58,956 bases of DNA, filler included, from 4 parts of 4 records of this genome joined end to end with filler, not necessarily neighbours in it; one strand, 5' to 3'. Positions 39,979-57,604 are shown, counted from the first letter of the whole stretch. Notes: generated by a model from the sequence alone, not told the origin. A program made the numbers and translations.

Positions 39979-42900
39979 TTTTTATCTCCAAGTTCTTCAA
40001 GATCGGTATTAGATAGATCGGTCGGAAATATCCAATTTAGTTTGTCTTTTTTCTTAGTTGCAACCATTGAATAAAAAATTATTTCCCTCTCCTCACCTTG
40101 GCATGTGTCAAAAGTCATAATTTTTAAATTAAGCTTATCAAAAAAGTAATCTTTATCTTTATGCTTAGTTATTAAAGTAGTGAGGTTTTTTTGCTGATCT
40201 GAAAAAGGAGTAATAATCCCAACCGTTGTTTCATCTCCTCTTTCTTTAATTTTTTCCAATTGATTAATGATATATTTTGCCTCTTGATCATTAGTATTTT
40301 GAGTTTCTTTATCAATTTCGTAATCTAAAATTTCAAAATGGATAATATCTTTAATAGATTTTGATCTTAGCCTAATAGCTTGCAGATCATCGCTGTAAAA
40401 AGTCTTTGAACAATAAGCTATATGCTCTGGATATCCTCTAAAGTGTTTTTTTAACATAGCATTATAGTTAGCTATCCTTTCGAAAAAATCTAAGATTGAT
40501 GTCTTGACATTGAAGCTTTCGAGCCTTTCGAGCTGTACTGGATCTTTAGAAATATTATTTTTAAAAACTTTTCTAAGGTTGTTTAACAAAGCGTTATTTT
40601 TGATTGAAGTTGCTTGATAAGATTGCAAGTTACTAAATTGTTTTTTATCTCCAAGCACCAATATTTTCTTGGCTCTTATGATTGCTGGAAATGCTTGAGC
40701 TATACTAACTTGAGAGGCTTCGTCTATGATAATTAAATCAAACATTCCAATATCTAGATCAATATATTCAGCAAAATCTCTTACACTTGAAATAATACAT
40801 GGGAATGTATTTTTAAGTTTTGCAAATTGATTTTTTGGAAATTTTTGTTTTGCTCTTATAATTTTACTTAAACTTTTTGCAGTATTTCTATTTGTATCAA
40901 AGAATTTTATAATCTTTTCATCAATAATATCAGTCATACGAGTTGTGTATAGAGACTGGGCTCTTTTCATCAAAGATGCATAATCAAAATTTTCTGAATT
41001 ATCAAAAATTCCTGAAAAGAAATTTTCCAGGTTATAATAACGTTTTATTGAGTCTACTGTTTCTTCTTCAAGTAGTGCAACTTTATTTTCAAACAACGTG
41101 TCAATATCATTTTCTTTAATATCAAGTTTTTTGGATTGATCTTGATTATCATAAATAATATTTAAAGTATGTTTGTATTTATTAAAAAAAGTTAATTGAT
41201 CTTTTATTGAAGAATAATCTTTATTGGCTTTTATAATTTTAATTAATACTTCATGGTTTAATTTATTTTTTTTACAATAATCAATAAAAGAGTCTATATA
41301 TTCTTTAAAAACTTGAAGGTTTACATCATCTTTTTTTAAATTAATCGATCCTGAATAACCAATATTTTTTTTTATATCATCTTCGATTGTTTGAATTTTT
41401 CCAGCTTTTAAAAAACCACCAAGAATACCGCTAGTTAATTCTCTGTATTCTGAAATTTTTTTTCCTAAATAATCCATTGATTTTTCACTTATCTTATTTA
41501 GCAAATAAAATATTTTGGTTGTCTTGATATTTTCACCCACAAAATTATGTATTTCATTTAAACTTTGTTGATAGTTCCTAAAGTCCAATAATTTTTTAGA
41601 CTTATAAATTTCTTTGAATTTATCGATTACAAACTCATATTCTGAAATTTGATTTAAATTATCAATAAAACTATCTAGAGGTAAATCTTCACTCGTTAGT
41701 GAGTTTGTTTGAAGATACAAATTTAAATCTTTAACGTTAATTACTAAATCTTCTTTAGAGCATTGCTTTGATACCTCAGCAAATTCTTGAAATTTTTCTT
41801 TATCTATCCCCTGATAATGATCTGAGAGTATTTTCAATCTATCATTAACAACTCCAGAAATTTCAGAAATTTCTTTTTCAACATCTTTTCTGTGAGTTTT
41901 TTGAGCTCTATGGAAAGTTCTTAAGTTATCTACTGATGTTTTTGCAAGTATCTTATTATAAGTATTGCCCATCTTTCCTAGCCTTAAAATAGGATTTTGA
42001 ATGTTATGTTTCCCTCTTACCTGGTTTAGAGTTGTATTAATTTTGTTTTCAACAACATCTAAAGCCTCTCTCGTATCTGATAGAATTAAGATTGATTTAA
42101 ATTTTAAAATATAATCAAAAGCAATAGCAGAAATAGTGTGTGATTTACCAGTACCAGGTGGTCCTTCTACAACTACATATTTACATTTTTCATTATTAAG
42201 TGCTTTTAAAATTTTTTGTTGTTCTGGATTAACTGGGATTGGACTTTCATAATTTAATCTATCACTGACTTCTAGTCCATCCCATTCATCTTCGATATTT
42301 TCATTTACTACTTCTGGTTCATTAATTAAGAAATCAGTAATCAGTTGTTTAAACATTTCAGCAACATCGCTATCCCCAGCTAAAAGTTTTGACAAAATAT
42401 CTTCATAATCATTTACAAGAGCTTCATCAGATTTGTCAAAAACACAAAAATAACAATTATTTGAAATATTAAATTCCTTTGCTCTAGATACTTGCTTGGT
42501 AGAATTTTTAAAATTTATATCTCCGTTTGTTCTAAGCTTGGAGACAAGGTTCTCAACTATACCTGTTAATCTTTCAGATAAATTTTCTTCTTCAGAAATA
42601 TATAGTTTTCTTTCTTCATCAAATGTTTCAACTTTTTTGTCATCTTTAAACAAAACCTGGAATGCGTATTGAATAGCTTTTCTATTGACAAACATTTCAT
42701 TTGAAAAACTAATTTTAAAATGGCTCTCTGTAGAATATTCTTTAATATTTGCCTGAATATAGAAAAGTGGAAATTTCTTTTTTTCAATCTCAATATCACC
42801 AAAATATAAATATATTTCTTTTTTATCTAAATTTTTTTGTGAATTAACAATTTCTTGAAGGTCATAATAAAAATCTTTTACTTCAAAACCAGAAAAATAA

Positions 42901-43565
42901 TTCAATAAGCTTGAGGCAATATCTGTTTTGTTAAACAAATTAGCAACATCTTCTTTAGTTTTGTATTTTGGATCCGCAAGAATATTATTAAATATTGAAG
43001 GAACTTGTTCTACTAGTGGGTCAAGTATCAATTCTGTAAGTTCATGCTCTAAACGATCTAAAGATTCTAACTGAAAATTACTTTGACTACCTATTAACGG
43101 GTCCATTTTTTCCGAAATAGGTTTGATGACTATTTCTATTATTTCTTTCTTAATAATTTCATTTATTTTGTCATATGCTTCATCTGGTTTGTTTTTGTGC
43201 GATATAGCAAATTCTTTAATAGTTTTAGATGAGAGAAGAACAATCTTTTCAATATCTTTATCTTTAATTTGTTTTGTTAGTTTTTTAAGTAAATCAATTG
43301 AATTATCATTTAGTTTAACTGTATGAGTTCCTTTTTTAACAGAAATATCTTGTTGAAAAGGTTCGGGTTTATTTAAAATTTTTCTAATAGACTCATTAAA
43401 GTTTTCATACTTTGATAAATTAATTCCAATCTTAAAATTCTTTTCATCTTTTAATCTGATATACCTTTTTGGGAAACGAGTAGATTTAAAACCACTCTGC
43501 AAAAAATCCATAAAATATTTACAAAGTTCTTCAGTAAATATATTTCTAGATTGCTGTGTTGACAT
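39979..43565 (-). CDS. large Upf1/Dna2-like SF1 helicase (AAA_11/AAA_12) with unrecognised N-terminal region, 3' truncated
   Basis: EGPPGTGKS, IIDEASQ, GDKKQ, KHFRG, TFDTCQGEER; long helical insert between motifs I and II. Confidence 0.85.
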
Positions 43566-43570
43566 AAAAA

Positions 43571-43675
43571 TTAATCAGATAATAGTTTATAAGCTAAAAT
43601 TGCAATTTCCAAGGCAATTACTTCGTAAGCTAAATAAGTAAGTTCAATGGCTAATAGTATTTCAAGTCCAGACAT
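43571..43675 (-). CDS. 34-aa hydrophobic micropeptide MSGLEILLAIELTYLAYEVIALEIAILAYKLLSD
   Basis: Manual translation; stops 5 nt before the helicase ATG; paralogue at 58150-58218; internal 12-aa repeat. Confidence 0.55.
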   Translation of the reverse strand: MSGLEILLAIELTYLAYEVIALEIAILAYKLLSD

Positions 43676-43681
43676 AATTTA
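43625..43681. repeat. 57-bp direct repeat, copy 1
   Basis: 53/57 identical to 58168-58224 by manual alignment. Confidence 0.9.
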
Positions 43682-43845
43682 AACCTACCAAACCTTATAT
43701 TGGGTTTCTAAATACTTAAATAATTGCTGTTTAATGAATGGAGGGTTATTAAAATTATAAAGATAATATCATTTCTGATATTTAAAAATATTTCTTTTGA
43801 ATCAAATCTCTTTACCTGCAATAATAAAAGTCTTAATTAAATATA

Positions 43846-44595
43846 ATGTCTGATAAAACAATAATCGTAGGTGAAGGTTATAACGAAGGTGATAAATATG
43901 AAGATAAAATTACTAAAATATTAATAGATAAAAAAATTCTTCCTATAGATTATGAAAGAGCTGGTGCATCAGACAAAACTGATGTCGATTTTATATTTAA
44001 TAAAAAAAATATTAATATCGAAATTAAGGCAGATGAAAATGCTGATTATGGACAAAAATATTTAAAATGGAATAAAGATAATGGTTGGACTTGGTCTAAG
44101 AATGATAACGTTATTGAAATGTATAGTAATATGAAGATTATTGAAACCTATATAGACAGTAATTTTATACCTAGAAAGTTTACTAAAGAAAAATTGCTAA
44201 TTACTAATGAAGATAAGATTTATGACCAGAAAAAATTTGAAAAACCAAATATAGAAATACCATTAAATACTTTATTTGAATATTATGCAGAAAAAAAATG
44301 CTTTTATATACAGTTACAAAATCATGGTCTTTATTACATGAGAGAGGATATTAATAATTTAGGTGTTCCACAATTTGATGGAGTTATAAGTCTTAGATTG
44401 AGAGCTAAAACAATTTATTCAACCGAAAGAAAACGAAAAAAAAATGACAGAGGTAACTTTATTACAATTAATACAGGAAAACCAACTCCTTGGAATTATA
44501 ACTTTCTTGGTGTTATTAAAATGTCAAAAAAACCAACACCTTCAAATAAAGATATTGAGGAACTTGATGGAAGAGAATTTCCTTTTAAAGTTTAA
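43846..44595 (+). CDS. putative PD-(D/E)xK restriction endonuclease
   Basis: E...KTDVDF...INIEIK catalytic-like pattern; convergent with and overlapping a C5 methyltransferase. Confidence 0.65.
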   Translation: MSDKTIIVGEGYNEGDKYEDKITKILIDKKILPIDYERAGASDKTDVDFIFNKKNINIEIKADENADYGQKYLKWNKDNGWTWSKNDNVIEMYSNMKIIETYIDSNFIPRKFTKEKLLITNEDKIYDQKKFEKPNIEIPLNTLFEYYAEKKCFYIQLQNHGLYYMREDINNLGVPQFDGVISLRLRAKTIYSTERKRKKNDRGNFITINTGKPTPWNYNFLGVIKMSKKPTPSNKDIEELDGREFPFKV

Positions 44596-45760
44596 GTTCT
44601 AGTTGTTGCTCTTGATTAGAAACGTCTTTATCATAATTAAATGCTGTACTTCTAATAAATTCTATATTTGTTTGTTTATTTTTTTTTATTTTTTTCTTTT
44701 TGTTTTTTAACATTTTTTTAACTGCATCACCTATTGCCTCAGCCATTAATGGTGGAACAGCATTTCCTATTTGAGTCCATTGGCTAGTAATTGACCCAAA
44801 GAATTCAAATTCTGCTGGAAAAGATTGAAGACTTGCAGCCTCTCTTGTCGTTAAATACCTATTTTCAGATGGATGATAATACATTCTACTTCCAGTAACT
44901 ATTGTTGGTGATGGTTTAGACCTATCAAGTCTTGCAAACTTTGCTTCTCTAAATCTTTTTTCTCCAATTTCATTCCAATCATGATTAAACCATAATTTTT
45001 TGGGTAAGAATTTCTTTTCATCTCTTTCGTATCGAATTGATTTTCCTTCAGGTACGTGGCTTATTCTTAAAAATTCAAGTTTACTCTTAATGCTTGCTGT
45101 TTCGATATTATGATTAAAAGATTTATTTTTAAAACTAATCAAATTTTTAAAAGCCCAAGAAACAGTTCTGGGTGATTGTAATTTGGAATTTATTTCACCT
45201 ACATTTGAAAATTTCTTTTGTGGATAAATATTTTCAATTTTTATTCTGTTTCCAATAAGAATTACTCTTCGTCTTATTTGTGGGGCTCCATAATGATGTG
45301 ATGATAAAACTCTAGCATTTAAATCATAACCTAGCTCCTCAAAGCAATTAAAAATTGATTGTAATGTTTTAATATTTTTTTTTGCCAATAATCCTGTTAC
45401 ATTTTCCAATACAATTATCTCTGGTTCAAGTTCTTTTACAAATCTTACAAATTCTAAAAATAAGTGATTTCTTGAGTCTTTTGCGTCACCAGGCCCTATT
45501 GTTGAAAACCCTTGGCAAGGCGGACCCCCACAAATAATGTTAACTTTTTGATTTTTAATTTTTTTTTTAAAATCTTTTATCAAAATTTTTCTAATATCAC
45601 CATCAATACCAATTGCATTTTTGTGATTTTTTTTAAATGTTTCGATTGCTGGTTTAAGAAAATCAATTCCAGCTAAACAGGTTAATCCTGCTTTTTCAAA
45701 GCCACAGGAAAGACCACCAGCACCAGAAAATAGATCAATAAATGTAAATTTTTTATTCAT
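44585..45760 (-). CDS. DNA (cytosine-5)-methyltransferase
   Basis: DLFSGAGG, GGPPCQGFS, ENV, QIRRR, REAASLQSFP, QIGNAVPP. Confidence 0.95.
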   Translation of the reverse strand: MNKKFTFIDLFSGAGGLSCGFEKAGLTCLAGIDFLKPAIETFKKNHKNAIGIDGDIRKILIKDFKKKIKNQKVNIICGGPPCQGFSTIGPGDAKDSRNHLFLEFVRFVKELEPEIIVLENVTGLLAKKNIKTLQSIFNCFEELGYDLNARVLSSHHYGAPQIRRRVILIGNRIKIENIYPQKKFSNVGEINSKLQSPRTVSWAFKNLISFKNKSFNHNIETASIKSKLEFLRISHVPEGKSIRYERDEKKFLPKKLWFNHDWNEIGEKRFREAKFARLDRSKPSPTIVTGSRMYYHPSENRYLTTREAASLQSFPAEFEFFGSITSQWTQIGNAVPPLMAEAIGDAVKKMLKNKKKKIKKNKQTNIEFIRSTAFNYDKDVSNQEQQLELKL

Positions 45761-45834
45761 AAAGAGAATCAAGCAGAGTAAATATATTAATATCTTATTA
45801 TAATAGAGACGTCTTCAATTAATCTAATAACTTG

Positions 45835-47316
45835 TTATTTTTTCATTAAGTGAATTATTCTTTCTCTAACTTCAGATATTGTTTTTTTAAACATTTTAGA
45901 GAGTGCAATCTCAGGAACATTTCTTTTATAAAGAGCAATCAATTTATTGTCATCTCTGGTTGACCAGTCACCTAATTCTTCTATTTTGATATTGTCTTCA
46001 GCTTTCTTTTTAGTCACTTTTTTAATTGTTGCTTTGTTGTTCACAAAATCTAAAACTTTTTGATCAAAAATAATATCCTTTTTATTAATTTTATTAAGTA
46101 AAAATATTCCCTCTAAACTTTTTGCTCTACTCAAAGCAACATATGTCTGTCCATGATCAAAAGCACCTGTATCTAAATCAATTGCTACTCTTTCAAAAGT
46201 TTGTCCTTGTGATTTATGAATAGTGGTTGCCCACGCAAGTTTAATTGGATATTGTATAAATGAGCCTTTGATTGAAGTATCTACTCTATTACCAGAAAAC
46301 TTATATTCATATTTATCCCACTTAGCTTTTCCTAAATAATAAGATTTATCATCAATTAATATTTTAATCTTATCTTCACTGAGCGATTGAATGACACCAA
46401 GAGTTCCATTAACCCATTTTCGTGGAACCTCGGTGTCATTTTTAGTAATCATAATTTGTGCACCAGCTTTAAGTTTTAAATTTTTCTCGACAGGAAATTC
46501 TTTTTCACTAAATCTACCTTTTACAATTGCATCGTAATTAAAAGTGGGAGTTTTAAGTTGATATAAATTGGTTAAATTAATGTCATCTACTTTTCTATTA
46601 GTGGGTGCTAAAATAATTGTCTCTTTAGGTAAATCATCAATAGCTGTTATTCTATTATTAAGAAAAGATAATTTGTCATCATCAGTGGAACCTGAACGTA
46701 TACTATTCAATAAATCAATAAATGACTTATCCTTTTGTCTAAAAATTTTAGTTAGTTCGATATTTTGAAGATTACCTTCTGAAAAACAATTAGCATTAAA
46801 AAAATATGGACCCTCAGGATAAAACTTTTCCATTATCTCTGCATCTTTTCCTATAATAGGGGGTAGTTGCATCAAATCACCAAAAACAATTATCTGAACT
46901 CCTCCAAAGGGTTCGTCGTTTCCTCTATTCATCTTTAATGAAATATCTATGGCATCAAATAAATCTGCTTTTACTAATGATATTTCATCTATAAGAATTG
47001 TATCCAGTTTGTTTAACAACTCTTTATCCTTTAATATTTTTATATCTTGTTTAGATATAAAATGAGGTGGAAATTTAAAAAAGGAGTGAAGTGTTTGGCC
47101 TTTAGCTTTTATTGCTGTAATTCCTTGGAAAGCCAATGTTACAAAGTTTTTTTTTGTATTTTGCCTAAAATATTCAAGAAGGGTTGATTTACCAGACCCA
47201 GCTTTCCCCGTTATAAATAAATTAGTGTTGGTGTTATTAATTAGATTAAAGGTATCTTTAAATTCTTTAGTTAATTCCAAATTATCTGGAAGTTCAGTAC
47301 CTGTATCTAATTTCAT
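45835..47316 (-). CDS. Pif1-family SF1B helicase with C-terminal HTH-like domain
   Basis: TGKAGSGKS, IDEIS, GDLMQLPP, IFRQ, YPIKLAWATTIHKSQGQT, GQTYVALSR. Confidence 0.9.
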   Translation of the reverse strand: MKLDTGTELPDNLELTKEFKDTFNLINNTNTNLFITGKAGSGKSTLLEYFRQNTKKNFVTLAFQGITAIKAKGQTLHSFFKFPPHFISKQDIKILKDKELLNKLDTILIDEISLVKADLFDAIDISLKMNRGNDEPFGGVQIIVFGDLMQLPPIIGKDAEIMEKFYPEGPYFFNANCFSEGNLQNIELTKIFRQKDKSFIDLLNSIRSGSTDDDKLSFLNNRITAIDDLPKETIILAPTNRKVDDINLTNLYQLKTPTFNYDAIVKGRFSEKEFPVEKNLKLKAGAQIMITKNDTEVPRKWVNGTLGVIQSLSEDKIKILIDDKSYYLGKAKWDKYEYKFSGNRVDTSIKGSFIQYPIKLAWATTIHKSQGQTFERVAIDLDTGAFDHGQTYVALSRAKSLEGIFLLNKINKKDIIFDQKVLDFVNNKATIKKVTKKKAEDNIKIEELGDWSTRDDNKLIALYKRNVPEIALSKMFKKTISEVRERIIHLMKK

Positions 47317-47849
47317 TTAATTTTATCTATTAGGTCTTGAGGTATGTTCTCAGTTTTTCCCTCAAATGTAAAATACTTTGATTTAAAGTATTCTTGCTGT
47401 CTTGGGTCGGTAATCAAATGATTTAATCTTTTAAATTGAAGTTTAAAAAATTCTTCTGCATTTATTCTTTTAAATTGTTTTGGTGAGTTCTTAGGTGTAA
47501 CACGCGTTCCTTTTGGTAATTTTGATAATGTAGATTTTAAAGACTGCTTCAACCAAAAATTACCTACTTTCCAATAAAATTGTGGATCAAACACTTCAGC
47601 TGTTTCTCTAAACTTTTTACTACGTACAACGTTTCGCACCGTTTCTGTTTTTTTTAATAGCCACCCATTTTCATGCTCATCTAATCTAGCCCACAAATAA
47701 AGCTGAAATCTTTTCATTTTCCAGCGAGCTTGAATATTATTAGGGTTATATGGGTCTGCTTTTACAATAATTTCTAAAGCTTTTTTAGGATCTATATTAT
47801 TTTCTTCAAGGTATTTTAAAACATTTTTATAATTTTGCTTAACAGCCAT
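47313..47849 (-). CDS. hypothetical basic protein
   Basis: 178-aa ORF overlapping the Pif1 start by 4 nt; no recognised motif. Confidence 0.7.
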   Translation of the reverse strand: MAVKQNYKNVLKYLEENNIDPKKALEIIVKADPYNPNNIQARWKMKRFQLYLWARLDEHENGWLLKKTETVRNVVRSKKFRETAEVFDPQFYWKVGNFWLKQSLKSTLSKLPKGTRVTPKNSPKQFKRINAEEFFKLQFKRLNHLITDPRQQEYFKSKYFTFEGKTENIPQDLIDKIK

Positions 47850-47851
47850 AA

Positions 47852-47876
47852 TTACCTGTACAAAACTGACAGGTAA
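47852..47876. promoter_or_regulatory. inverted repeat, candidate operator
   Basis: TTACCTGT-N9-ACAGGTAA with perfect 8-bp arms, 2 bp from the ATG of the 178-aa ORF. Confidence 0.5.
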
Positions 47877-47951
47877 ATGTCAATCACTGTTTAAAGTAAT
47901 TATGATAATGTGTAAAACTTTGTATAAAAAAAATAATTAATAATTTTTGCC

Positions 47952-47979
47952 TTGAAATATTATTGTTAAGGTATATGAT
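47952..47979 (+). promoter_or_regulatory. candidate sigma70 promoter
   Basis: TTGAAA-N16-TATGAT upstream of the structured segment; the AT-rich context lowers specificity. Confidence 0.4.
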
Positions 47980-47985
47980 AAATAA

Positions 47986-48253
47986 GTAGCCAATTAGAAA
48001 GTTACCTATTTGAAGGGTTACTATATATACTTTTAATTAAAAGCTTTCTTAAAGTATATTTACTAACCCTTCCGATTAATTTTGATGCGTCCCTACCTCG
48101 TAAAGAGGATCCGGTATTTCAAAATTGTCTTTCATGATTGTTTGCGTAAATAAACAAACAAAGGAACACGGGTTCAATTTTGATAAATAGAAAGCTTAAT
48201 TTTAATAAACTTCATCTTAATCTTTATGAGTCTTTGTTTCAGAAGGAAACAAA
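47986..48253 (+). ncRNA. candidate structured ncRNA or long regulatory leader (family not recognised)
   Basis: 61-nt hairpin 48012-48072; alternative stems 48078-85/48119-26 versus 48119-27/48175-83; two CGTAAA-capped hairpins; RBS hairpin 48233-48253. Strand and ends are inferred. Confidence 0.5.
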
Positions 48254-48526
48254 ATGGAAAAGAAAAAAGTTAATAAATTAGTAAATAATGAAGAGCATAC
48301 AAAGTTAATAAAACTTTTTGCTGAACATTCTCCAGAAGAAAGATCTAGACTTTTAAACGATATAGATAATATCCTTTGTGGGATGCTTGATCTAAAGCCC
48401 TCGGATCTTCCTTGGATTTCACCAAACAAACATACAGAGCGATGGTCTAAACTCATGGTAAATCTTCGTCTTGTAATTGGTAAAATTGAATATGAAAGTT
48501 TTGAAAAAGAAAGAACGGTACATTAA
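48254..48526 (+). CDS. hypothetical protein (90 aa)
   Basis: AAGGA RBS; TAATG coupling to the next ORF. Confidence 0.7.
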   Translation: MEKKKVNKLVNNEEHTKLIKLFAEHSPEERSRLLNDIDNILCGMLDLKPSDLPWISPNKHTERWSKLMVNLRLVIGKIEYESFEKERTVH

Positions 48527-48804
48527 TGAGGAATTACGTAAAAAATAAATTTAAGGACAGATTAACTTATTGTAAGGATTGGAAGAACTCTATTGATCTT
48601 TATTTAGAGAATAAAGAAATCACCAGCAAAACTAATCAAGAATTCTATAAATCTAGGCCATTTTTAAAGATAATATTAGATGTATACTATTTACCATACA
48701 ATTTATGTAAATTATGTGGATATTTGACGTTGATACATCAATATAAAAAAAATGAAACTGAGATTAAAGTTCTATCTAAGGAGTTAAACGAGAACGATAA
48801 TTAA
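48526..48804 (+). CDS. hypothetical protein (92 aa)
   Basis: Translationally coupled to the previous ORF; 18 nt upstream of the nuclease-helicase. Confidence 0.65.
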   Translation: MRNYVKNKFKDRLTYCKDWKNSIDLYLENKEITSKTNQEFYKSRPFLKIILDVYYLPYNLCKLCGYLTLIHQYKKNETEIKVLSKELNENDN

Positions 48805-48822
48805 TTTAATCAAATTAAATTT

Positions 48823-51800
48823 ATGAAAAATGATCATGACAGATTAAAGACTGCGTCAAGGTTGAAAAACTGGATTGCTTGCAACTATACAACCATAAAT
48901 GAAATCAATAAAAAAGAATTAAAGAAAAAAGAACAATCAACTACTGAATTAATTAGAAAAAAAAGAGGTGATCAATTTGAAGCAAAAATTTATCAAAAAC
49001 TAATTAAACAATTTCCAAAACATATTCAAATTAAAAAAGATGAAGATAGATTTGAAAAAACAAAAGAGGCTATAAAAAAAGGTTATGATCTAATACACAA
49101 AGCTCACTTTAAACATGAGGGTTGGGTTGGAGAAATTGATTTTCTTATTATAGATAAAAATAAAAAAACTAAAAATGGTAAGTGTCGGTATGAAGTATAT
49201 GATACCAAGTTATCATCTGTACCTCAAACAGATCATATTACTCAAATTAGCCTATATTCAGAATGGATTGCAACACAGCAAGACAATGAATTACCTGACT
49301 TCATGTATCTAATTTTAGGTATTAAAAACAAAGAAAAAAAAATTACTAAATTAAAAATTGATGAAGAGGTAAAACAATACAAAACGCTAAACTATCAATT
49401 ATATTTTCAAAAAAATAATGCAAATTATATTAAATTTTTAGAGAGTGATAAAAAAAATATAGAACCTAATAGATGTAGTTTTTGCGCTATGTGTAAATGG
49501 TCTGATGTTTGCGATAAAATATGGATAGAAAAAGATCACCTCAATCAAATTGCTAAGATTAGAAAAGATCAAATTGTTAAAATTAAAAAACATGGTGTAA
49601 AAACACTATCGGATTTTGCAAAACTTAAAAAAGCTGAAAAAATTAAAGATTTAAATTCAATAATTCTTAACAAACATCTTTCTCAAGCAGAATTATTAAT
49701 AAATTTTAAAGAAACTAAAATACCACAATTTAAAATACTTCCCTTAGAGAATGAAAGAGGATTCAATAAAATGCCCAAATCAAGTGCACATGATCTTTTT
49801 TTTGATATTGAAGGATTAGATAAAATATTAAATTCTGAAGAATCTGAGCAAGATAAACAAGCCTTGGAGTATCTATTTGGTATTTATGATCCCGATAATA
49901 AGAAAGAACCCTACAAATATTTTTGGGCACATAATCAAGATGAAGAAAAAGAAAAATTTGTTGAGCTACTAGAGTTCATTGACAAGCATTTAAAGAAATA
50001 TCCAGAGGCCCATATTTATCACTATAATCATTATGAAAAGACTGCACTAACCAAGCTTATGAGTAAGCACGATACTCATCTTGAGCAAGTTAATGATCTA
50101 CTGAGATATGGTAAACTGGTTGATCTTCACGCTGTAGTTAATCAAGGAATACAGGTTTCCGAAAGAGAATATTCGTTAAAAAACCTTGAGAAATTCTATG
50201 GATATAAAAGAAAAGGTGAAATTAAGAAAGCCAACGACAGTACAGATAAATACCTTGATTGGATTGAAACAGGTGAAGAAAGACTTTTAGATGAAATCAA
50301 ACTTTACAACCAAGAAGATTGTGAAAGTACATATTTTCTTCGAGAGTGGTTGAGTGAAATCAAACCTAAAGATTCTCTTTATGTAGTCAAAAAAGAGCCA
50401 GAAATTAGAGAAAAAAATTGGGAAAAAGAAAATGAAGAATTAAAAAAATTAATAGAAAAAAATTGCACAGATAAAGAAATAAGACAAATATTAAAAGACA
50501 TTTTAGGATTTCATAAAAGAGAAGAAATGATCTACTGGCAGAGTATTTTTAACCGTGCTGCAAATAAAAATGATGAAGATCTAATTGAAGATGCAAAATG
50601 TATAGGTTTCATGGAAAAAATTGATGAAGAAACTCAAGGAACAAATACTAAAGGAAAAGAGATTAAAACATTTACTTATAAATTTTCAAAACAAGATTTT
50701 AAAGTTAAAGAAAAAGACTCAGTAATAGATGCAACAGATGGTGATTTAAAAACTTATAATGTTGGCAAAGTAATTGGTATTGATGAAAGTAGAAAGGATG
50801 AAAATATTATACTGATATCTTCTACTAAAGATTTACCAGAAATATTATCAATAACTAAAGATGAATTTGTTAGCTCCCAAAAAATTATAGAGGCAATACA
50901 AAGATTTGTTAAATCTGCTGTTAATGGTGAAAAAAAATATAAAGCAACTTACGAAATTTTAAAAAAGAATTATCCAAAAATTAAAAACATTAAAATAGGT
51001 GATGCAATTATAAAAGAAGGAGATTTTTTAAAAGAATCTTTTGAAGCTGTAGAGAATATGGATAACAGCTACCTCTACTTTCAAGGCCCCCCAGGTGTTG
51101 GAAAAACACATACAGCAGCATATATAATTATTGAGTTAATAAAAAAATCAAAAAAAATTGGTATTACAGCTAATAGTCACAAGGTCATATTTAATTTATT
51201 AGACAAGATTGAAGAGCTATCTTCTGCAAAAGAAAACAAAAACTTTTCATTTAAAGGATTTCACAAAGGTAGTGCTAGTGATCCTGAAAAAAAATATGAT
51301 AAAGGTGAATATATACAGCACATTAGTGGTGTCAAAAAAGTATCTGGAAAATCTTTTGATAAAATGGATTTAGAATTTGAAAAAATGGATGCAGATTTGT
51401 TTTCTGGTACTGCGTGGTGTTTTTCTAGACCAGCATGTGATGAAAAATTAGATTATCTATTTATAGATGAAGCAGGACAACTTACGACAGCTGATATCCT
51501 TGCAATTTCTTTATCTGCAAAAAATATAGTAATTATTGGAGACCAAATGCAATTGAGTTCACCCATCTCTGCAGTACACCCTGGGGATTCAGGACAATCC
51601 CTTCCAGAATATCTTTTAGAAAATAATGACACAATTAGTTCAAATAAAGGTATTTTTATAGATAAAAGTAGAAGATTACACCCCAAACTTAGAGGATTTA
51701 TATCTGAGAATTTCTATGATGAGAGATTAAAAAATTTTGATTTTACAGAAAAAAGAAAGATTATATTTTCAAATAAAAAAGATTCATTACCTGAAGCTGG

Positions 51801-52272
51801 AATTGTAATGATTGATGCTAAGCATAAAGAAGTTTGTAGACAAAAAAGTGAAGAAGAAGGATCGCTAGTAAAAGATTTTTTTAACCAATTACTTGGTAGT
51901 ATTTTTTTAGATGAAAACGACAATAAGAAAATAATGAACGAAGAAGATATTCTAGTTGTTGCTCCTTATAATGTTCAGGTCAATTATCTAAAATCGATTC
52001 TACCAAAAGGTGCTAAAGTTGGTACTATTGATAAATTTCAAGGCCAACAAGCTCCAGCAACAATTATAAGTATGACTACGAGTGATCCCGAGAGCTTACC
52101 AAGAAATGTTGATTTTTTCTTTAGTAGAAACAGATTAAATGTTGCAATATCTCGAAGCCAATGTTTGTCAATAGTTATAATAAATAAGAAAATTTTAGAG
52201 ATAGCTTGTAAGAAGATTAAACATATTCACTTAGTTAACACTTTTATGAAATTACTTGAGTTTGAAAAATAA
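48823..52272 (+). CDS. TM0106-family RecB/Cas4-like nuclease + RNase H-like domain + SF1 helicase
   Basis: GEIDFL...YEVYDTK, Cys cluster CSFCAMCKWSDVC, FFDIEG/HIYHY/YNQEDC, QGPPGVGKT, DEAGQ, GTIDKFQGQQ, RLNVAISR. Confidence 0.9.
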   Translation: MKNDHDRLKTASRLKNWIACNYTTINEINKKELKKKEQSTTELIRKKRGDQFEAKIYQKLIKQFPKHIQIKKDEDRFEKTKEAIKKGYDLIHKAHFKHEGWVGEIDFLIIDKNKKTKNGKCRYEVYDTKLSSVPQTDHITQISLYSEWIATQQDNELPDFMYLILGIKNKEKKITKLKIDEEVKQYKTLNYQLYFQKNNANYIKFLESDKKNIEPNRCSFCAMCKWSDVCDKIWIEKDHLNQIAKIRKDQIVKIKKHGVKTLSDFAKLKKAEKIKDLNSIILNKHLSQAELLINFKETKIPQFKILPLENERGFNKMPKSSAHDLFFDIEGLDKILNSEESEQDKQALEYLFGIYDPDNKKEPYKYFWAHNQDEEKEKFVELLEFIDKHLKKYPEAHIYHYNHYEKTALTKLMSKHDTHLEQVNDLLRYGKLVDLHAVVNQGIQVSEREYSLKNLEKFYGYKRKGEIKKANDSTDKYLDWIETGEERLLDEIKLYNQEDCESTYFLREWLSEIKPKDSLYVVKKEPEIREKNWEKENEELKKLIEKNCTDKEIRQILKDILGFHKREEMIYWQSIFNRAANKNDEDLIEDAKCIGFMEKIDEETQGTNTKGKEIKTFTYKFSKQDFKVKEKDSVIDATDGDLKTYNVGKVIGIDESRKDENIILISSTKDLPEILSITKDEFVSSQKIIEAIQRFVKSAVNGEKKYKATYEILKKNYPKIKNIKIGDAIIKEGDFLKESFEAVENMDNSYLYFQGPPGVGKTHTAAYIIIELIKKSKKIGITANSHKVIFNLLDKIEELSSAKENKNFSFKGFHKGSASDPEKKYDKGEYIQHISGVKKVSGKSFDKMDLEFEKMDADLFSGTAWCFSRPACDEKLDYLFIDEAGQLTTADILAISLSAKNIVIIGDQMQLSSPISAVHPGDSGQSLPEYLLENNDTISSNKGIFIDKSRRLHPKLRGFISENFYDERLKNFDFTEKRKIIFSNKKDSLPEAGIVMIDAKHKEVCRQKSEEEGSLVKDFFNQLLGSIFLDENDNKKIMNEEDILVVAPYNVQVNYLKSILPKGAKVGTIDKFQGQQAPATIISMTTSDPESLPRNVDFFFSRNRLNVAISRSQCLSIVIINKKILEIACKKIKHIHLVNTFMKLLEFEK

Positions 52273-52309
52273 ATTTAATCAGTTAATAAATTCTAGATTA
52301 AAAATATTA

Positions 52310-52681
52310 TTACTTTTTCTTCTTTTTTATTTTTTTTGTTAAAGGATTACTCCCATATTTGTTTTTACCTTTAGTTCCATCTCCTAACATAAGAGCTAAT
52401 ACAATCAGACTTCCAATAAAAGGAACTAAACTCCAGAAGTAATGAACTCCAGATCTTCCTGTATCATGCAACCTTCTAACACCCACAGTAAATAGGGGAA
52501 TAAAGATCATAATAATAATCCCAAAAAGAAAATAGCTAACCGTCTCGGATTCGAAAATAAAATTTATTATAAAGCAAGATGACCAAATTAATTGAAACCA
52601 CCAGAACTCAGATTTACTGGCCCTACCCTCCATTACAAAATATTTTTTAAAGCAGGTAGATATTGATTCACCAAAAGTCAT
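52310..52681 (-). CDS. DUF805 family membrane protein
   Basis: GRASKSEFWWF, VGVRRLHDTGRSG, NKYG. Confidence 0.92.
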   Translation of the reverse strand: MTFGESISTCFKKYFVMEGRASKSEFWWFQLIWSSCFIINFIFESETVSYFLFGIIIMIFIPLFTVGVRRLHDTGRSGVHYFWSLVPFIGSLIVLALMLGDGTKGKNKYGSNPLTKKIKKKKK

Positions 52682-52697
52682 TATATAATAAATTTTT

Positions 52698-53558
52698 TCA
52701 AATTTTGCTTATTAATAAATTTCTAAAAAATAATAGTAAAAAAAACAATGATAAAATTTGAGAAATAATACTCCCTAAAACTAAGTAGTTTTTAAGAGAA
52801 CTCACCCTCTTATTAATTGATAGCTCACTATACAATTGATCATTATACTCTAAAAACATTGAATCTATTCTTTGCATTTCTTCACTAACAATATTGTAGT
52901 AACTATCCATATTTCTTAACAAAAAATGAGAGAATTTATAAATATCATGGAAATTTAAATTATTAAATTCTTTTAAAGCTTTATCAGTATTTGGAGGATA
53001 ATATTTATTGAAATCTTTGGTGTGAAAGGAGTTTATGTTACTTTTAAATATATTTCGAAAATCATAATTTAATTTTTCAGCAACATAATATCCTTCGCTG
53101 TCAAAATAATCTTTGAAATAACTTTCATTCCATCTATGGATATATTCAAACTTATCACTAATATCTAATGAATTATAAATTATTTCACTATAATGATAGA
53201 TAAATCTATTTTTAATTGTTTCTATTGTAAAGTTGTAATCAATTACATTATCAATCATTTTTGTATCAGCCAATTTTGAATTTTTTTCCAAAAGGATTAA
53301 ACTCTTAATCCAAAAAAGATTATCTCTATTTAGTTCAACTAAAGTGTCTGTAATAAAGCCTTGTAAAGATAGAAGTTGATTACTTATAGTATCAACATCA
53401 TAAACTTTAGTTGTCAGATTATCTATTTTGATGTCTGATTTTCTTAAATTATCTTCTTGTCTGATCACACCTTGATCACATACATAACTTGTAAGAGTAA
53501 AAATCGCTATTAAGATTATAAATATTAATGAATTTATATTAATAAACTTTCTTCTCAT
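52698..53558 (-). CDS. hypothetical protein, TM - helical extracytoplasmic domain - TM
   Basis: Hydrophobic helices at both ends; overlaps the upstream ORF by 4 nt. Confidence 0.7.
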   Translation of the reverse strand: MRRKFININSLIFIILIAIFTLTSYVCDQGVIRQEDNLRKSDIKIDNLTTKVYDVDTISNQLLSLQGFITDTLVELNRDNLFWIKSLILLEKNSKLADTKMIDNVIDYNFTIETIKNRFIYHYSEIIYNSLDISDKFEYIHRWNESYFKDYFDSEGYYVAEKLNYDFRNIFKSNINSFHTKDFNKYYPPNTDKALKEFNNLNFHDIYKFSHFLLRNMDSYYNIVSEEMQRIDSMFLEYNDQLYSELSINKRVSSLKNYLVLGSIISQILSLFFLLLFFRNLLISKI

Positions 53559-54472
53559 TTCTTTTTTTTCTTTAAATTAAAATTGACTGAATTAATTTCA
53601 AATATTTGGATGATAACGAAAATTAAAAATTGAAATACAAAAGTTGTTAAAATGATATTTTTCTCTAGGTTTGAATAATATAAAATTTCTTTTTCATATT
53701 GTTCAATCAAAAGATCATCATTACCTTTATATGCTTTTAAATAATTCATTAAATTTTCATAAAAAATTGTTAATTGATCTAATGAGTCATAAACAAGAGT
53801 ATAATCTTGCAAAGCTTGAGATGTTTGATTCAATGAGTTCAAATCCTCGTTTTTTATTTCATTTATAATTTCTTCTAAACTTAGAGGCTTTTGCAGTAAA
53901 TAATTTTCAATATTTAAATTTAATAATTTATTCATATACTCATCTACAGAGTCTAAGGAATCTATAAATCTATCAATATTTTCTTTGTCCCATGAATTTT
54001 TTATATTTGGTATTATTTGATCAGTATAAAATGGGTCATTTTTATCGTACATGTTAACTCCGTACGATTTTTTCATTTGTACTATTTCTTTCTCAAGAGC
54101 AAATAAATTATAATAAATAAACGAACCGTAGTAATCTCTTGTTGTATTTATTTTGTTTAAAATTTTAAATTCATCAATAAATCTTTTTTTAGCTGTGTTT
54201 GCACTTTCTTTATTAATAGATTTTGAAAGATTGTTAATTTCATTTTCAAAAAAAGAAATGGTATTATTACCATCTCTTGCACTAATTTGAGTTATTGTGA
54301 GTTCATTTTGTATATCCGAAATTTTTTTTTCTATAAAAAAAGAAATTGTTGCTGAGGAAAAAGCAAAAATTGAAAGAAAAATTCCAGTATTAATAATTAA
54401 TAAAGCTTTTCTTTTATTTTTTTGAATACTTAAAATATATGATTGTAATAAAGTAAATCTTAAGAATCTCAT
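53555..54472 (-). CDS. hypothetical protein, TM - helical extracytoplasmic domain - TM
   Basis: Same topology as the downstream neighbour. Confidence 0.7.
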   Translation of the reverse strand: MRFLRFTLLQSYILSIQKNKRKALLIINTGIFLSIFAFSSATISFFIEKKISDIQNELTITQISARDGNNTISFFENEINNLSKSINKESANTAKKRFIDEFKILNKINTTRDYYGSFIYYNLFALEKEIVQMKKSYGVNMYDKNDPFYTDQIIPNIKNSWDKENIDRFIDSLDSVDEYMNKLLNLNIENYLLQKPLSLEEIINEIKNEDLNSLNQTSQALQDYTLVYDSLDQLTIFYENLMNYLKAYKGNDDLLIEQYEKEILYYSNLEKNIILTTFVFQFLIFVIIQIFEINSVNFNLKKKKK

Positions 54473-54477
54473 ATGAT

Positions 54478-55158
54478 CTATATTTTCTTAATTTCTACTT
54501 CGCTTGATTTTTCTTTCTGTAGTTTTTTGAAGTGTGAATGTAGAGCTACAGCATAAATTGTGATCATTCCAACAATTGTTAAATGATAAGGATGGCTTAT
54601 AAAATTGTATAATCCATGAATTAGATAGGGGATTAATAAGCACAATATTAAGTATTTCTTATTAGCAGTGAATGAATACATTCCAAAATAAAATCCCATT
54701 ATACAACCATTTAAACCATGAAGAGGGATGGCAGAATAAGATCTCCAAATAGCCATTTGGTAAGGATCTATTTCCCAAAGTTCTGCTAATCTAAAAACAT
54801 AATCATAATTTTCATATGTTGCAAAACCTAGGGATACCGTAACACCATAGACAATTCCATCCATAGGTTCATTGAATTCATTTCTTCTTAAGACAACAAA
54901 ATATAAAATAATAAACTTTAATAATTCCTCAGCCCAAGCAGGTCCTAGAAAACTTGAATAAAGTGCTTCAGATAAATCTGTACCATCATTAAAATTTTCA
55001 TACATAAAATCATTGATAATTCCTGCTGGTAAACAAATTAAAATACCTAGAAAAAAAACTAAAGCTATTGAGCCTTTAGGTTCTTTAAATCTATCTGATA
55101 AAAAAAAATATAATAAGATTAATATTGATGGAACAATTGTTATTAAAAGAGTGTTCAT
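54478..55158 (-). CDS. PrsW family intramembrane protease
   Basis: DRFKEP, AEELLK, EPMDGIVYG, GFATYEN, PLHG, IHGLYN. Confidence 0.92.
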   Translation of the reverse strand: MNTLLITIVPSILILLYFFLSDRFKEPKGSIALVFFLGILICLPAGIINDFMYENFNDGTDLSEALYSSFLGPAWAEELLKFIILYFVVLRRNEFNEPMDGIVYGVTVSLGFATYENYDYVFRLAELWEIDPYQMAIWRSYSAIPLHGLNGCIMGFYFGMYSFTANKKYLILCLLIPYLIHGLYNFISHPYHLTIVGMITIYAVALHSHFKKLQKEKSSEVEIKKI

Positions 55159-55169
55159 TTTTGAATATT

Positions 55170-56525
55170 TTAATTAGTTTTTTTCTTCATACTCTCAATT
55201 GTTCGTTCTATTGTTTTTTTATTTTCAGTATTTTCTAGTTTCTCAATCTTTTCAATTAACTCTTGAAAATAAGGAGGATATTTAGAATCATTTTTGGTAC
55301 CTTTTAATAAATTTGAATTAGGAATAAATTTTTTAGCCACTAGTTTTTCTTCAGCTGTATAATCATAATCTCTACAATTTAATTTCAAAGTCCACTTACT
55401 AATAGAAAAACCAGTTTGATCTATATAAGCAAATAAACGAACAGGTTCTCCGTTTTCAAATTGTAGTTTATTTTTGTACTCGTATTTAATTTTTTCCTCT
55501 TCATTGTCGCCAATTACCTCAATAATATTTGTATAAGCGACACTATAGGCGTTTGTGTAAACCTCTGTTTTTTTGAAGGTTTGTTTATCTGCCGCTCCAT
55601 ACATACCAGATAAAACATTTACCTCACCATCTTCAGATATATCTGCTATTTCTTGTCTAATTTCAGATACAAAAAAATTTATAACTTTACCTGCAAATCT
55701 TGGGTAGTCATCTTCTGTTATTTTTGAATTTTTTAAATCTGATGTTGTAATTAAGCAGTAGGCAATGTGATTGGTTGGGTCGGTTGTAATACCCCTTCCA
55801 TAACTTTTATCAATTAAATTTGTTAATGTATTTACTGAAACATAATCATCTTGATGATAATCAGAATAATTATATTCATCATTAAATTTTACTGTTGAAG
55901 CGATTTCTTGAATAACACCAGAATAAAAATTAAAAAACTCTTCTGACTCATTTCCATCTCCAAATAAAAATATTGTTAATTCGATATATCCTTCTCTACC
56001 TAAAATTAAACTTTTATATTCATAAGTAATATCTCCATCTAACCACTCTATTTTATAGGCATATGTGGATAAATTATTTTCTGAAAGACTGGGTTCAATG
56101 AGCCAACTTACTTTCGATGTTGAATCTGACATCCTTTTACTCATCGTTTCAAGTATGTTAGAGGAAGTAAAATTCTTAAATCTATCTGTTTTTATATATC
56201 CAACATCATTATATTCTACGTTAATCTTATAATACCCTTCTCGATCAGATATAATTAATTTTTCATAAATATCTTCAATATTTGTTTCTTGTTCATTGAT
56301 TAAATCTAAACGTTTTTTAATATTTTCTTTTGAGTCTAAATAAATCTCTGTTTCAATGATTTCTATAGAAGCATTGGCATCTGGAATTATAATTAATGTA
56401 TTTTCAGGATTTTCAAGATTTTTCCATCCTATTTTGTAATATGGATCATTTAAATCGATCTCGATGGCATTTGAATTAGAAAAAATAAATATTAAAAAAA
56501 AAAAATTAAGTAATTGTTTCTTCAT
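55170..56525 (-). CDS. secreted protein with DUF2167-like N-terminal domain and unknown C-terminal domain
   Basis: Signal peptide; Y.DVGYIK.D, W...P, LGREGY, FN..Y.YSDY resemble DUF2167. Confidence 0.6.
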   Translation of the reverse strand: MKKQLLNFFFLIFIFSNSNAIEIDLNDPYYKIGWKNLENPENTLIIIPDANASIEIIETEIYLDSKENIKKRLDLINEQETNIEDIYEKLIISDREGYYKINVEYNDVGYIKTDRFKNFTSSNILETMSKRMSDSTSKVSWLIEPSLSENNLSTYAYKIEWLDGDITYEYKSLILGREGYIELTIFLFGDGNESEEFFNFYSGVIQEIASTVKFNDEYNYSDYHQDDYVSVNTLTNLIDKSYGRGITTDPTNHIAYCLITTSDLKNSKITEDDYPRFAGKVINFFVSEIRQEIADISEDGEVNVLSGMYGAADKQTFKKTEVYTNAYSVAYTNIIEVIGDNEEEKIKYEYKNKLQFENGEPVRLFAYIDQTGFSISKWTLKLNCRDYDYTAEEKLVAKKFIPNSNLLKGTKNDSKYPPYFQELIEKIEKLENTENKKTIERTIESMKKKTN

Positions 56526-56530
56526 ATTCT

Positions 56531-57169
56531 TTAATTAATTTTTGCTTGATCAAGTTCTGACAAAACACCTTTAATATGTGCTGCTGTCATATCTAATACA
56601 GATGCTGTTTTCATCAATAGTTTACTTTCTTTAGTGTCTAAATGACCATCAGATGAAGCAACATAATACATTGCCTTAACAACTAATTCTCTGTGTCCTA
56701 CATTTAAATAAGGTTTTATTTTTTTTAAATATTCTTGCACATTTTTTGTGCTTTTTTTGACAAGAGCAATGTTTTTTTCTATTTGATTTTTTGTAAATTT
56801 TTTATTCTTTGTGAGCTTATTATAAATTTCTGAAACGATATTTAATTCTTCGTCCTCAACTTTATTGTCAGCTAAAATCATTAAGCATAAAACATTTTTA
56901 AGTGCCTTTTCATACTCAGACTCCATTTCTTCTTCATTAAGAGCGGGTTTGTAATCTATTACATTAAGATGATAAATACTTTCACATTTTTTACACTCTA
57001 TATGATCGTTTTTTTTTCCACTTATTGGAAAAATTGGAATAAAAAATAATGTGAACCAGTCTTGAACATACTTCTTTCCATATTCTTCTTTGAGATTGCA
57101 ATTTGGACAATGAAACTGTCCACTATCCGTTTCTACTGCTCTATCTTTTGTACCAAATAATATAAACAT
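56531..57169 (-). CDS. zinc-ribbon + TerB-like domain protein
   Basis: CPNC...WFTLFFIPIFP...CKKC ribbon; ADNKVEDEE and SDGHLDTKE TerB motifs. Confidence 0.85.
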   Translation of the reverse strand: MFILFGTKDRAVETDSGQFHCPNCNLKEEYGKKYVQDWFTLFFIPIFPISGKKNDHIECKKCESIYHLNVIDYKPALNEEEMESEYEKALKNVLCLMILADNKVEDEELNIVSEIYNKLTKNKKFTKNQIEKNIALVKKSTKNVQEYLKKIKPYLNVGHRELVVKAMYYVASSDGHLDTKESKLLMKTASVLDMTAAHIKGVLSELDQAKIN

Positions 57170-57271
57170 TTATATTTTTATTAAAATAAATCTTCTCAAA
57201 TTAATCGACAAAATTAAAGGTTTAAATAACAAACTCTATCTAGTTTTTATAAAATTAACTCACTCATAGGT

Positions 57272-57355
57272 TTAATTCAAAAATTTTAGAAAAGCAGGAA
57301 GAGCTAACAAAAGAACTCCAATCATATATACTGCAATTAGTAACTGATCCATCAT
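57272..57355 (-). CDS. 27-aa hydrophobic peptide or gene remnant MMDQLLIAVYMIGVLLLALPAFLKFLN
   Basis: Manual translation; single TM helix. Confidence 0.4.
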   Translation of the reverse strand: MMDQLLIAVYMIGVLLLALPAFLKFLN

Positions 57356-57394
57356 TTCAATAGCTTATTCTAACTCATGTGATAACATTAATGA

Positions 57395-57559: not shown

Positions 57560-57604
57560 TTAATTAAAAAATTTAATAATACGTTTGTTAGAAGGGTTAG
57601 AGAT

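Follow-up and report, generated by a model that had tools for sequence, protein, structure and literature searches.

What does a structured, noncoding stretch of about 270 nucleotides (nt) do upstream of two small orphan genes and a large nuclease-helicase gene, and does it belong to that nuclease in particular? The locus lies on the plus strand of a DNA stretch of 58,956 nt, filler included (here "the window"), which joins 4 parts of 4 records whose order implies no neighborhood in the genome. The answer that we develop here is that the noncoding stretch is the leader RNA of a gene cassette and probably a cis-acting translational control element of an accessory operon of SAR11 (Pelagibacter), in which nuclease genes are exchanged behind a fixed front end. 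The leader is a new RNA family, previously undescribed, and the novelty of the locus lies in this RNA, in its small-protein families, and in the combination of a fixed front end with swappable nucleases.

The leader (47986-48253; ∼268 nt) is followed by three plus-strand open reading frames (ORFs) in a row: ORF1 (48254-48526; 90 amino acids [aa]), a conserved small protein without a known family; ORF2 (48526-48804; 92 aa), a conserved helical-hairpin protein also without a known family; and an 1,149-aa TM0106/COG2251 protein (48823-52272) with a Cas4-like PD-(D/E)XK nuclease, a Cys cluster, a DEDD-like RNase_H_2 exonuclease, and a superfamily 1 (SF1) helicase. The spacing is 404 nt before ORF1, −1 nt between ORF1 and ORF2, where the stop TAA and the start ATG have one A in common (TAATG), and 18 nt between ORF2 and the nuclease gene. 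A preliminary description of this DNA had reported the same co-oriented unit with its 404-bp gap, TAATG coupling, and 18-nt spacing, and all of these coordinates hold. The comparison covers 109 loci, made up of the window itself, 28 loci in species genomes, and 80 in metagenomes. ORF1 or ORF2 served to find every one of them, and the set therefore gives no estimate of nucleases without these genes.

The leader is a structured RNA of the plus strand

The leader folds at −56.9 kcal/mol (z = −3.24), and none of 200 shuffled sequences is equally stable, but the minus strand also folds (z = −3.94), and single-sequence folding thus leaves the strand undecided; the assignment to the plus strand is made because of covariation across relatives. 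Three covarying helices are present, together with a pseudoknot joining the loop of the P2 hairpin to a downstream site. In an RNAalifold consensus of 20 sequences representing about four lineages, 16 of 43 pairs show compensatory change. When the pseudoknot is included (52 pairs), 96.7% of cells are paired, versus 85.5% when shuffled (0/500) and 39 to 50% when the partners are slid, and 19 of the 52 pairs have changed on both sides. A second, independent set of 13 divergent sequences, none of them used in building the leader covariance model (R1), gives 94.1% versus 76.0% when shuffled (0/500), with both partners altered in 21 of 32 pairs, among them the complete outer P2 stem (12 pairs). R1 represents the 5′ domain only, and support for the 3′ domain and for the pseudoknot comes from the full-length alignment (277 positions) and from scripts. 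The earlier proposal that the upstream segment is structured RNA tied to the small ORFs is supported.

Two further observations, the restriction of G-U wobbles to the plus strand and an R1 score of 170 bits on that strand versus 43 on the other, exclude a purely DNA-level palindrome. An operator formed by 48012-48033 and 48051-48072, with incidental RNA structure, would account for a hairpin that is a near-perfect DNA palindrome and for the about equal folding of both strands as single sequences, but it is a most improbable explanation, as the long-range P1 helix and the pseudoknot also covary, and the hairpin arms diverge between lineages yet can still pair, which is not the behavior of an operator bound by a conserved protein. 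On the evidence of its base pairing, the noncoding stretch is genuinely a structured plus-strand RNA.

Homology among leaders is visible only with profiles; a plain blastn comparison of the intergenic region with the first 28 loci returns noise only. R1 matches lie on the plus strand just 5′ of ORF1 in another 15 loci of far greater divergence, and iterated profile searches recover homologous leaders from 33 of 90 upstream regions; among the 109 loci the leader is detected in 52, with 13 more weak matches at equal spacing. The window has a single copy, as does each of the 2 genomes in which the leader was found. An R1 search matched none of 139 family genomes, but its positive control recovered the RNA in only 2 of 5 known carriers, and we claim no absence from it. 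Rfam 15 has no match at the gathering score in the whole window, the best subthreshold rows scoring 27.2 bits (gathering score, 60) and 26.5 bits (gathering score, 74). The leader is also not among the motifs in the available text of the 2009 Pelagibacter RNA survey (PMC2704228), in which the words "nuclease" and "helicase" are absent and whose supplements may hold motif lists.

Among 18 closely related metagenome contigs hardly any position varies between the −35 hexamer and the ATG. This conservation is not just recent shared ancestry, because the left flank is unrelated in six loci (L034, L038, L043, L044, L046, and L048) despite a near-identical leader, near-identical leaders precede TM0106 proteins of 83 to 99% identity but also, in L043, L046, and L047, proteins of no more than about 39% identity, and ORF1 has 10 to 13 third-position differences where the last 150 nt of the leader have 1. 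The leader is more conserved than the synonymous sites (third codon positions) of ORF1, and the ratio of 1 difference to 10 to 13 therefore points to selection on the RNA or DNA sequence itself. Very strong sequence conservation and the constant association with nuclease operons could also suit a trans-acting or ribonucleoprotein RNA, acting as a stable scaffold, guide, or antitoxin-like partner of the nuclease or the small proteins. Such a role is quite unlikely, however, as the structure extends into the ribosome-binding site and start codon, no terminator-like sites are detected in 47300-52800, there are no repeats and no guide-like variable segment except the P3 hairpin, and the three nuclease families encoded downstream are dissimilar by BLAST, which makes a common RNA-binding surface unlikely.

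A pseudoknot linked to the Shine-Dalgarno sequence

The 5′ domain is closed by P1 (47984-48000 with 48130-48147; helices 1 to 3, with coordinates mapped from alignment columns [A3]), all of the elements described here being on the plus strand. Compensatory pairs in P1 include 17:199 (CG, AU, UA), 19:197 (AU, GC, UA), and 26:187 (AU, GC). P2 (48008-48076, with arms 48008-48033 and 48051-48076; inverted repeat I1, helices 4 and 5) is a long hairpin with a pyrimidine-rich apical loop, and its inner stem, ATATATAC/GTATAT, is conserved without covariation. The short P3 hairpin CCTC-GTAAA-GAGG (48096-48108; helix 7) has compensatory changes at 3 of 3 pairs in the independent set, is variable in length, and is the place of large insertions in other lineages. 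The P2 loop provides the 5′ strand of the pseudoknot, AAGCTTTCT (as RNA, AAGCUUUCU; 48041-48049), with an anti-Shine-Dalgarno-like CUUUCU; it pairs with a Shine-Dalgarno (SD)-like decoy, AGAAAGCTT (as RNA, AGAAAGCUU; 48189-48197), and the two strands are complementary at 9 of 9 positions (inverted repeat I20). A terminal hairpin, TTTGTTTC-agaag-GAAACAAA (48233-48253; helix 8), contains the SD sequence and ends at the ATG, with 94.2% of its cells paired and changes mostly from G-C to G-U. A further local hairpin, GAAC/GTTC (48164-48175), was rejected, as it is not retained in the L054 group.

The pseudoknot pairing is retained with unrelated sequences in at least six lineages, among them the L054 group (TAACTTTCTTT with AAAGAAAGTTA), L009 (ATTTTACTGACC with GGTCAGTAAAAT), L022 (TTTACTGACTT with AAGTCAGTAAA), and L008 (TTGCTGACT with AGTCAGCAG), and the leader structure reaches the start codon in every lineage. 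In seven loci with short-form leaders (L102, L006, L004, L084, L085, L069, and L005), the loop TTACCTCTT pairs with the SD sequence itself, AAGAGGTAA, 4 nt 5′ of the ATG. The P2 loop is therefore an anti-SD element, and the leader is read as a cis-acting translational control. The short-form architecture also suggests a long-range GGAAC/GTTTC helix competing with the SD hairpin, with a register that differs between groups.

In the mechanism that we favor, the cassette would be an accessory operon of SAR11 flexible genomic islands, with a promoter at 47952-47979 driving a transcript whose first ∼268 nt would form the pseudoknotted 5′ leader. The 5′ domain (P1, P2, and the variable P3) would present the pyrimidine-rich P2 loop CUUUCU as an anti-SD. 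In the window the loop pairs with the decoy AGAAAGCUU, and the true SD lies inside the terminal hairpin; in sister lineages the true SD is the partner of this loop. Translation initiation at ORF1 is therefore most likely governed by the leader, and the TAATG overlap and the 18-nt gap would extend this control to ORF2 and the nuclease-helicase. The payload is a PD-(D/E)XK-type DNA nuclease, exchanged among unrelated families in evolution.

Candidates for the signal behind this control are feedback by ORF1 and a small ligand. In structure the leader combines a covarying, aptamer-like domain with an expression platform overlapping the SD, as riboswitches do, and a riboswitch is one form that the favored explanation could take: the P1-P2-P3 junction would be a small-molecule aptamer, perhaps for a nucleotide-derived, damage- or infection-linked signal, and the anti-SD loop would be the expression platform. 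SAR11 relies heavily on riboswitches, and the multihelix junction, conserved joining nucleotides, covarying stems, variable P3, and SD-occluding pseudoknot all fit this form. We nevertheless regard it as rather doubtful, since the controlled genes are neither metabolic nor transport genes and so suggest no ligand, and Rfam has no similar aptamer.

Promoter and transcripts

A sigma-70-like promoter (47952-47979, plus strand; TTGAAA, 16 nt, TATGAT) precedes the leader. A consensus scan gives it 10 of 12 matches but is uninformative by itself, with 31 sites found versus 30.4 expected. Its hexamers are conserved, with a variable spacer, in most of 15 full-length diverse leaders compared (3 of the 15 have an altered or unaligned −35 hexamer), and it is the point where conservation starts between contigs with differing left flanks. 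Ten RNA-type metatranscriptome runs contain part of the stretch, of which four, from three studies, were examined. One contig (48048-49743) begins within the leader, crosses ORF1 and ORF2, and ends inside the TM0106 nuclease gene, another starts at 47990, and a third has a different flank left of 47951; the uncovered parts (47835-48008) of contigs X6 and X7 are not counted as evidence. These contigs are compatible with co-transcription of the operon, which is not to say that they prove it.

Exchangeable nucleases behind a constant front end

The gene that follows the front end varies among the 109 loci. It codes for a TM0106-helicase in 38, a short PDDEXK_1-type nuclease in 28, a Cas4+DUF2779 protein in 18, RmuC in 4, and DUF2130 in 1; 3 loci have no recognizable next gene, and in 17 the contig ends before it. 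The 52 loci with a clear leader include 18 with a TM0106-helicase payload, 16 with a PDDEXK_1-type payload, and 10 with a Cas4+DUF2779 payload. No pairwise BLAST similarity exists among the three main nuclease families. As three unrelated nuclease families or RmuC/DUF2130 can follow the leader and ORF1, whether ORF2 is present or not, the helicase is optional, and because leader and ORF1 are constant while the payload is exchanged, ORF1 and ORF2 are better seen as accessory (regulatory or adaptor) proteins than as helicase partners. Judged from gene content, the link of the cassette widens from TM0106 to PD-(D/E)XK-type nucleases generally.

The preliminary description had tied the unit specifically to TM0106, allowing that occurrence of the small ORFs and the upstream structure apart from TM0106 genes would speak against this, and such occurrence is what the 109 loci reveal. 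Of its wider reading as an RNA-regulated antiphage or DNA-processing module, "RNA-regulated" survives as the best reading and a role in DNA processing or defense stays plausible, but the tie to TM0106 or to a helicase is given up.

Gene order is shuffled in several loci: ORF1 directly precedes the nuclease gene in L072, L074-L076, and L078 and likewise in L073, L097, and L108, and ORF2-like genes lie 3′ of it in L053, L058, L091, and L111. TM0106-helicase homologues occur without the small ORFs in other Pelagibacterales families (L001 and L002). DUF2130 or RmuC genes often follow the nuclease gene (L006, L008, L009, L013, L016, L018, L027, and others), as do genes for small unknown proteins of two clusters, c4 (about 115 aa) and c7 (about 195 aa). 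The full cassette may thus be longer than in the window, where an opposite-strand DUF805 gene comes directly next. One contig with ORF2 and a TM0106-helicase (L007; NZOY01000056.1) is filed under a Flavobacteriaceae metagenome-assembled genome (MAG), the others being Pelagibacter-type; this assignment is probably a binning error rather than gene transfer.

In the window the payload is, by its domain matches, a bona fide TM0106-family member with a predicted nuclease, a DEDD-type exonuclease, and an SF1 (Upf1-like) helicase, as had been proposed. TIGR03491 matches residues 10-510 at profile positions 2-462 of 462 (200.4 bits; cutoff, 97.45), and RNase_H_2 (PF13482) matches residues 325-510 (1.9e−23; 83.6 bits; cutoff, 22). 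AAA_12 (4.5e−22; 79 bits) and AAA_11 (32 bits) both exceed a cutoff of 27, and PDDEXK_1, at 18.8 bits, is under the Pfam cutoff of 22. By the usual definitions of the PD-(D/E)XK catalytic motif and the Cas4-type Cys cluster, the nuclease residues are D106, E124, D127, K129, Q141, and Y145, all invariant in six homologues (32 to 41% identity), as are the exonuclease residues D328, E330, and D499 and the Walker A and Walker B motifs of the helicase, GPPGxGKT (755-762) and DEAGQ (882-886). The translation has cysteines C20, C218, C221, C224, and C230, spaced as C218-x2-C221-x2-C224-x5-C230, which are not flagged as invariant over all six homologues. The cassette is sporadic, and the large protein was found in 3 of 41 related genomes.

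The COG2251 architecture (PF13482, DUF83, and tandem AAA) is already in print (PMC3985635), as are DUF2779 Cas4-like and DEDD nuclease fusions of the MMSYN1_0389 lineage (PMC13621843); in their available portions neither source assigns TM0106 or DUF2779 a function, an RNA leader, or partner small proteins. No Cas family is found among the 15 ORFs scanned (39927-57919), a scan in which CRISPR arrays were not specifically searched.

Small-protein families of the cassette

ORF1 and ORF2 are real, Pelagibacter-restricted protein families. Relatives make up 68 of 68 candidates for ORF1, all about 90 aa, and 119 of 120 for ORF2; nearly all are near query length, with 54 to 99% identity, and the few named ones are labeled Pelagibacter. 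Substitutions among close relatives, by codon position, number 37/19/149 in ORF1 and 131/87/256 in ORF2. An ORF1 profile finds only 73 clusters in 1.84 billion representatives, nearly all small proteins, and in the Atlas ORF1 falls into its own unnamed clusters only. Neither protein has a credible family in Pfam, NCBIfam, PADLOC, or PHROGs (ORF2 has a chance-level PADLOC row only), and relatives of neither occur among 2.9 million IMG/VR viral contigs. An alignment search with ORF2 was empty for 266 order genomes, an answer that the tool itself rates as uninformative and from which we claim no absence.

AlphaFold2 predicts three helices for ORF1 (mean predicted local distance difference test [pLDDT] score, 76.8), with a Lys-rich, low-confidence N terminus, and a long helical hairpin for ORF2 (mean pLDDT, 92.2; helices 2-41, 45-54, and 56-91). 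Foldseek against the Protein Data Bank (PDB) returns no match at an E value of ≤0.001 for either, and for ORF2 only generic coiled-coil hairpins. In a VIA search with ORF1, about 10 of the top 50 rows are extracytoplasmic function (ECF) sigma region 2, at Z scores of 4.8 to 5.7, which are inside the helical-bundle noise stated for the tool; we treat this resemblance as a lead only. A prediction of an ORF1-ORF2 complex, run without use of alignments, scores 0.01 against a mark of 0.34 and carries no weight for or against a complex.

A third conserved small protein, ORFx (53 aa; MDKITEIRIEEVFDE...), lies between ORF1 and ORF2 in 49 loci (tblastn), among them L009 (6843-7004), and is missing from the window. 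It overlaps the ORF1 stop as TAATG and fills an apparent ORF1-ORF2 gap of 127 to 157 nt. A small ribbon-helix-helix (RHH)-like module (KSVAIDxDCYKKIEEL...SRAQVV) can also stand directly behind the leader, separate from or fused to ORF1: it forms the N-terminal 40 aa of ORF1 in L022-L024 and is encoded ahead of ORF1 in L091 (4794-4982) and L107. The RHH assignment is a lead only, with RHH_1 in 11% of the members of one Atlas cluster and no Pfam match or PDB sequence match. The 64-aa ORF of L015 and L021 is also an RHH-like module. In seven TM0106-helicase loci (L019, L020, L025, L026, L028, L029, and L031), an ORF1-like 83-aa gene lies on the minus strand (about 5100-6700) and follows a 441- to 462-aa protein without a Pfam family. 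The two genes diverge from ORFx-ORF2-nuclease, and R1 detects no leader at these loci.

The leader is in every case followed immediately by ORF1 or by a gene for an RHH-like small protein, an arrangement that could reflect autoregulation as another form of the favored explanation. ORF1 would bind the 5′ domain and stabilize the loop-decoy or loop-SD pairing, as in ribosomal-protein leaders, and in some lineages a separate or fused RHH-like protein would act instead. The Lys-rich N terminus of ORF1 is consistent with this, and the conserved, noncovarying inner P2 stem suggests sequence-specific recognition; ORF1, however, has no RNA-binding fold or family in our scans, and with RHH only a lead, we hold autoregulation as a tentative possibility.

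The same small genes could instead form a toxin-antitoxin-like or immunity module, ORF1 and/or ORF2 neutralizing the nuclease until a trigger arrives and the leader only tuning their ratio. They overlap or abut the nuclease gene, RHH-like modules are fused to or ahead of ORF1 in some lineages in the manner of type II antitoxins, and the module sits in an accessory island. We think this unlikely, as the presence of ORF1 before three dissimilar nuclease families is hard to square with a specific inhibitor and the gene order is shuffled; moreover, the window ORF1 is without the N-terminal extension of L022-L024 and so has no RHH-type antitoxin part.

Weighing translational control and a role in defense

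Beyond the anatomy, RNA structure, conservation, and modularity documented above, we infer translational control by the leader and a role of the cassette in DNA defense or DNA-end processing. Several points weigh against these readings. The alignment of the independent set (A10) was fitted to R1 and is hence biased toward the structure, and the leader sequences are all from one clade, with about 10 lineages rather than hundreds. No leader is detectable in 38 of the 109 loci, including the 7 with an ORF1-like gene on the opposite strand. Taken lineage by lineage, several pseudoknot duplexes do not outperform shuffled sequence, the RNA being A+T-rich (23/300 for the window and 175/300 for L084), and the case for the pseudoknot rests on its constant position and covariation. 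The metatranscriptome sequences are assembled contigs and may include DNA. Finally, PADLOC matches no system here, and only the neighborhood ties the nuclease to phage defense.

An antiphage role is plausible from the island context. It is also conceivable, though we would not bet on it, that the leader represents a new class of sensory RNA (a riboswitch or a protein/RNA-sensing switch) coupling an infection or DNA damage signal to interchangeable Cas4-like nucleases. If so, the leader with ORF1, ORFx, and ORF2 would be a portable regulatory front end for defense effectors, and defense regulation would be built on RNA instead of a WYL/HTH repressor.

Island context

The low G+C content of the 39.9- to 57-kb part of the window (0.25 to 0.29, versus 0.32 to 0.38 in the first 27 kb) is a signature of a flexible island. 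The low-G+C stretch at 39900-57200 (0.22 to 0.30, versus 0.30 to 0.38 over the first 27 kb) fits a SAR11 hypervariable island. The preliminary description had placed the unit beside a restriction-modification pair and two more helicases, and of these the methylase and both helicases are present. A Dcm-type C5 methylase (PF00145, 248.8 bits; 44585-45772, minus strand) converges, with an 11-nt overlap, on a 249-aa ORF (43846-44595, plus strand), the supposed restriction partner, which has no Pfam or NCBIfam family and a single PHROG of unknown function (phrog_26930); the two may be a putative type II restriction-modification pair. A PIF1/RecD-like helicase (45835-47316, minus strand) overlaps by 4 nt a 178-aa ORF without a family (47313-47849, minus strand), and this pair, divergent from the leader promoter, is kept in the closest relatives and replaced in L034, L038, L043, L044, L046, and L048. 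The 1,212-aa SF1 helicase (39927-43565, minus strand) may be another defense candidate in the island; it has partial matches to the antiphage ProA, Hhe, MkoA/MkoC, and PDC-S37 models, far under equivalog cutoffs. TerB, PrsW, DUF2167, and DUF805 genes lie on the right side of the island, and in related loci the flanking genes are those for rpoD/dnaG, RseP/HU, or M16/M48 peptidases.

SAR11 bacteria have streamlined genomes, few protein regulators, and sporadic defense genes that are underrepresented in MAGs, according to the available part of PMC13712998. The cassette illustrates the exchange of effector genes in SAR11 variable islands while the control region ahead of them stays fixed. For RNA biologists the leader is a new candidate switch whose clear expression platform lends itself to mutational tests, and the front end with its exchangeable nucleases offers a direct handle on the function of the long-uncharacterized TM0106/COG2251 and DUF2779 Cas4-like families and on three new small-protein families.

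Comparison with known systems

Among protein families, the 1,149-aa protein is a member of TM0106/COG2251 (TIGR03491) with equal domain order, a family that is here only one of several interchangeable payloads. The DUF2779 fusions likewise join a Cas4-like nuclease to a DEDD-like exonuclease and occupy the operon slot in 18 of 109 loci, but they have no BLAST similarity to the window protein and no helicase. Mokosh (MkoA plus MkoB, or MkoC) combines a helicase with a PLD-type nuclease as a partner gene or domain. The SF1 helicase half of the 1,149-aa protein (residues 463-1136) matches MkoA at 5.9e−33 in PADLOC, but this is a helicase-only match, and neither the protein nor its neighbors contain a PLD domain or other genes of a Mokosh- or DpdJ-type system.

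The leader is closest in kind to SD-sequestering pseudoknot leaders such as the SAM-II/SAM-V and preQ1-II riboswitches, which likewise lie in the 5′ untranslated region, extend to the start codon, and combine covarying stems with a pseudoknot that involves or competes for the SD region. The rpsB ribosomal-protein leader described for Pelagibacter in the available text of PMC2704228 is likewise an SD-sequestering pseudoknot leader in SAR11. Unlike such leaders, which are about 50 to 100 nt, the present one is about 270 nt, has a three-helix 5′ domain and a decoy SD, is without Rfam 15 similarity, and would control nucleases and unknown small proteins.

In its organization the cassette recalls the BrxR/CapW-type WYL regulators, which are conserved and lie upstream of diverse defense systems. 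Both place a constant regulatory cassette before variable effectors in variable islands; in contrast to the WYL/HTH proteins, however, the constant part here is an RNA with novel small proteins, in front of effectors whose role in defense is putative.

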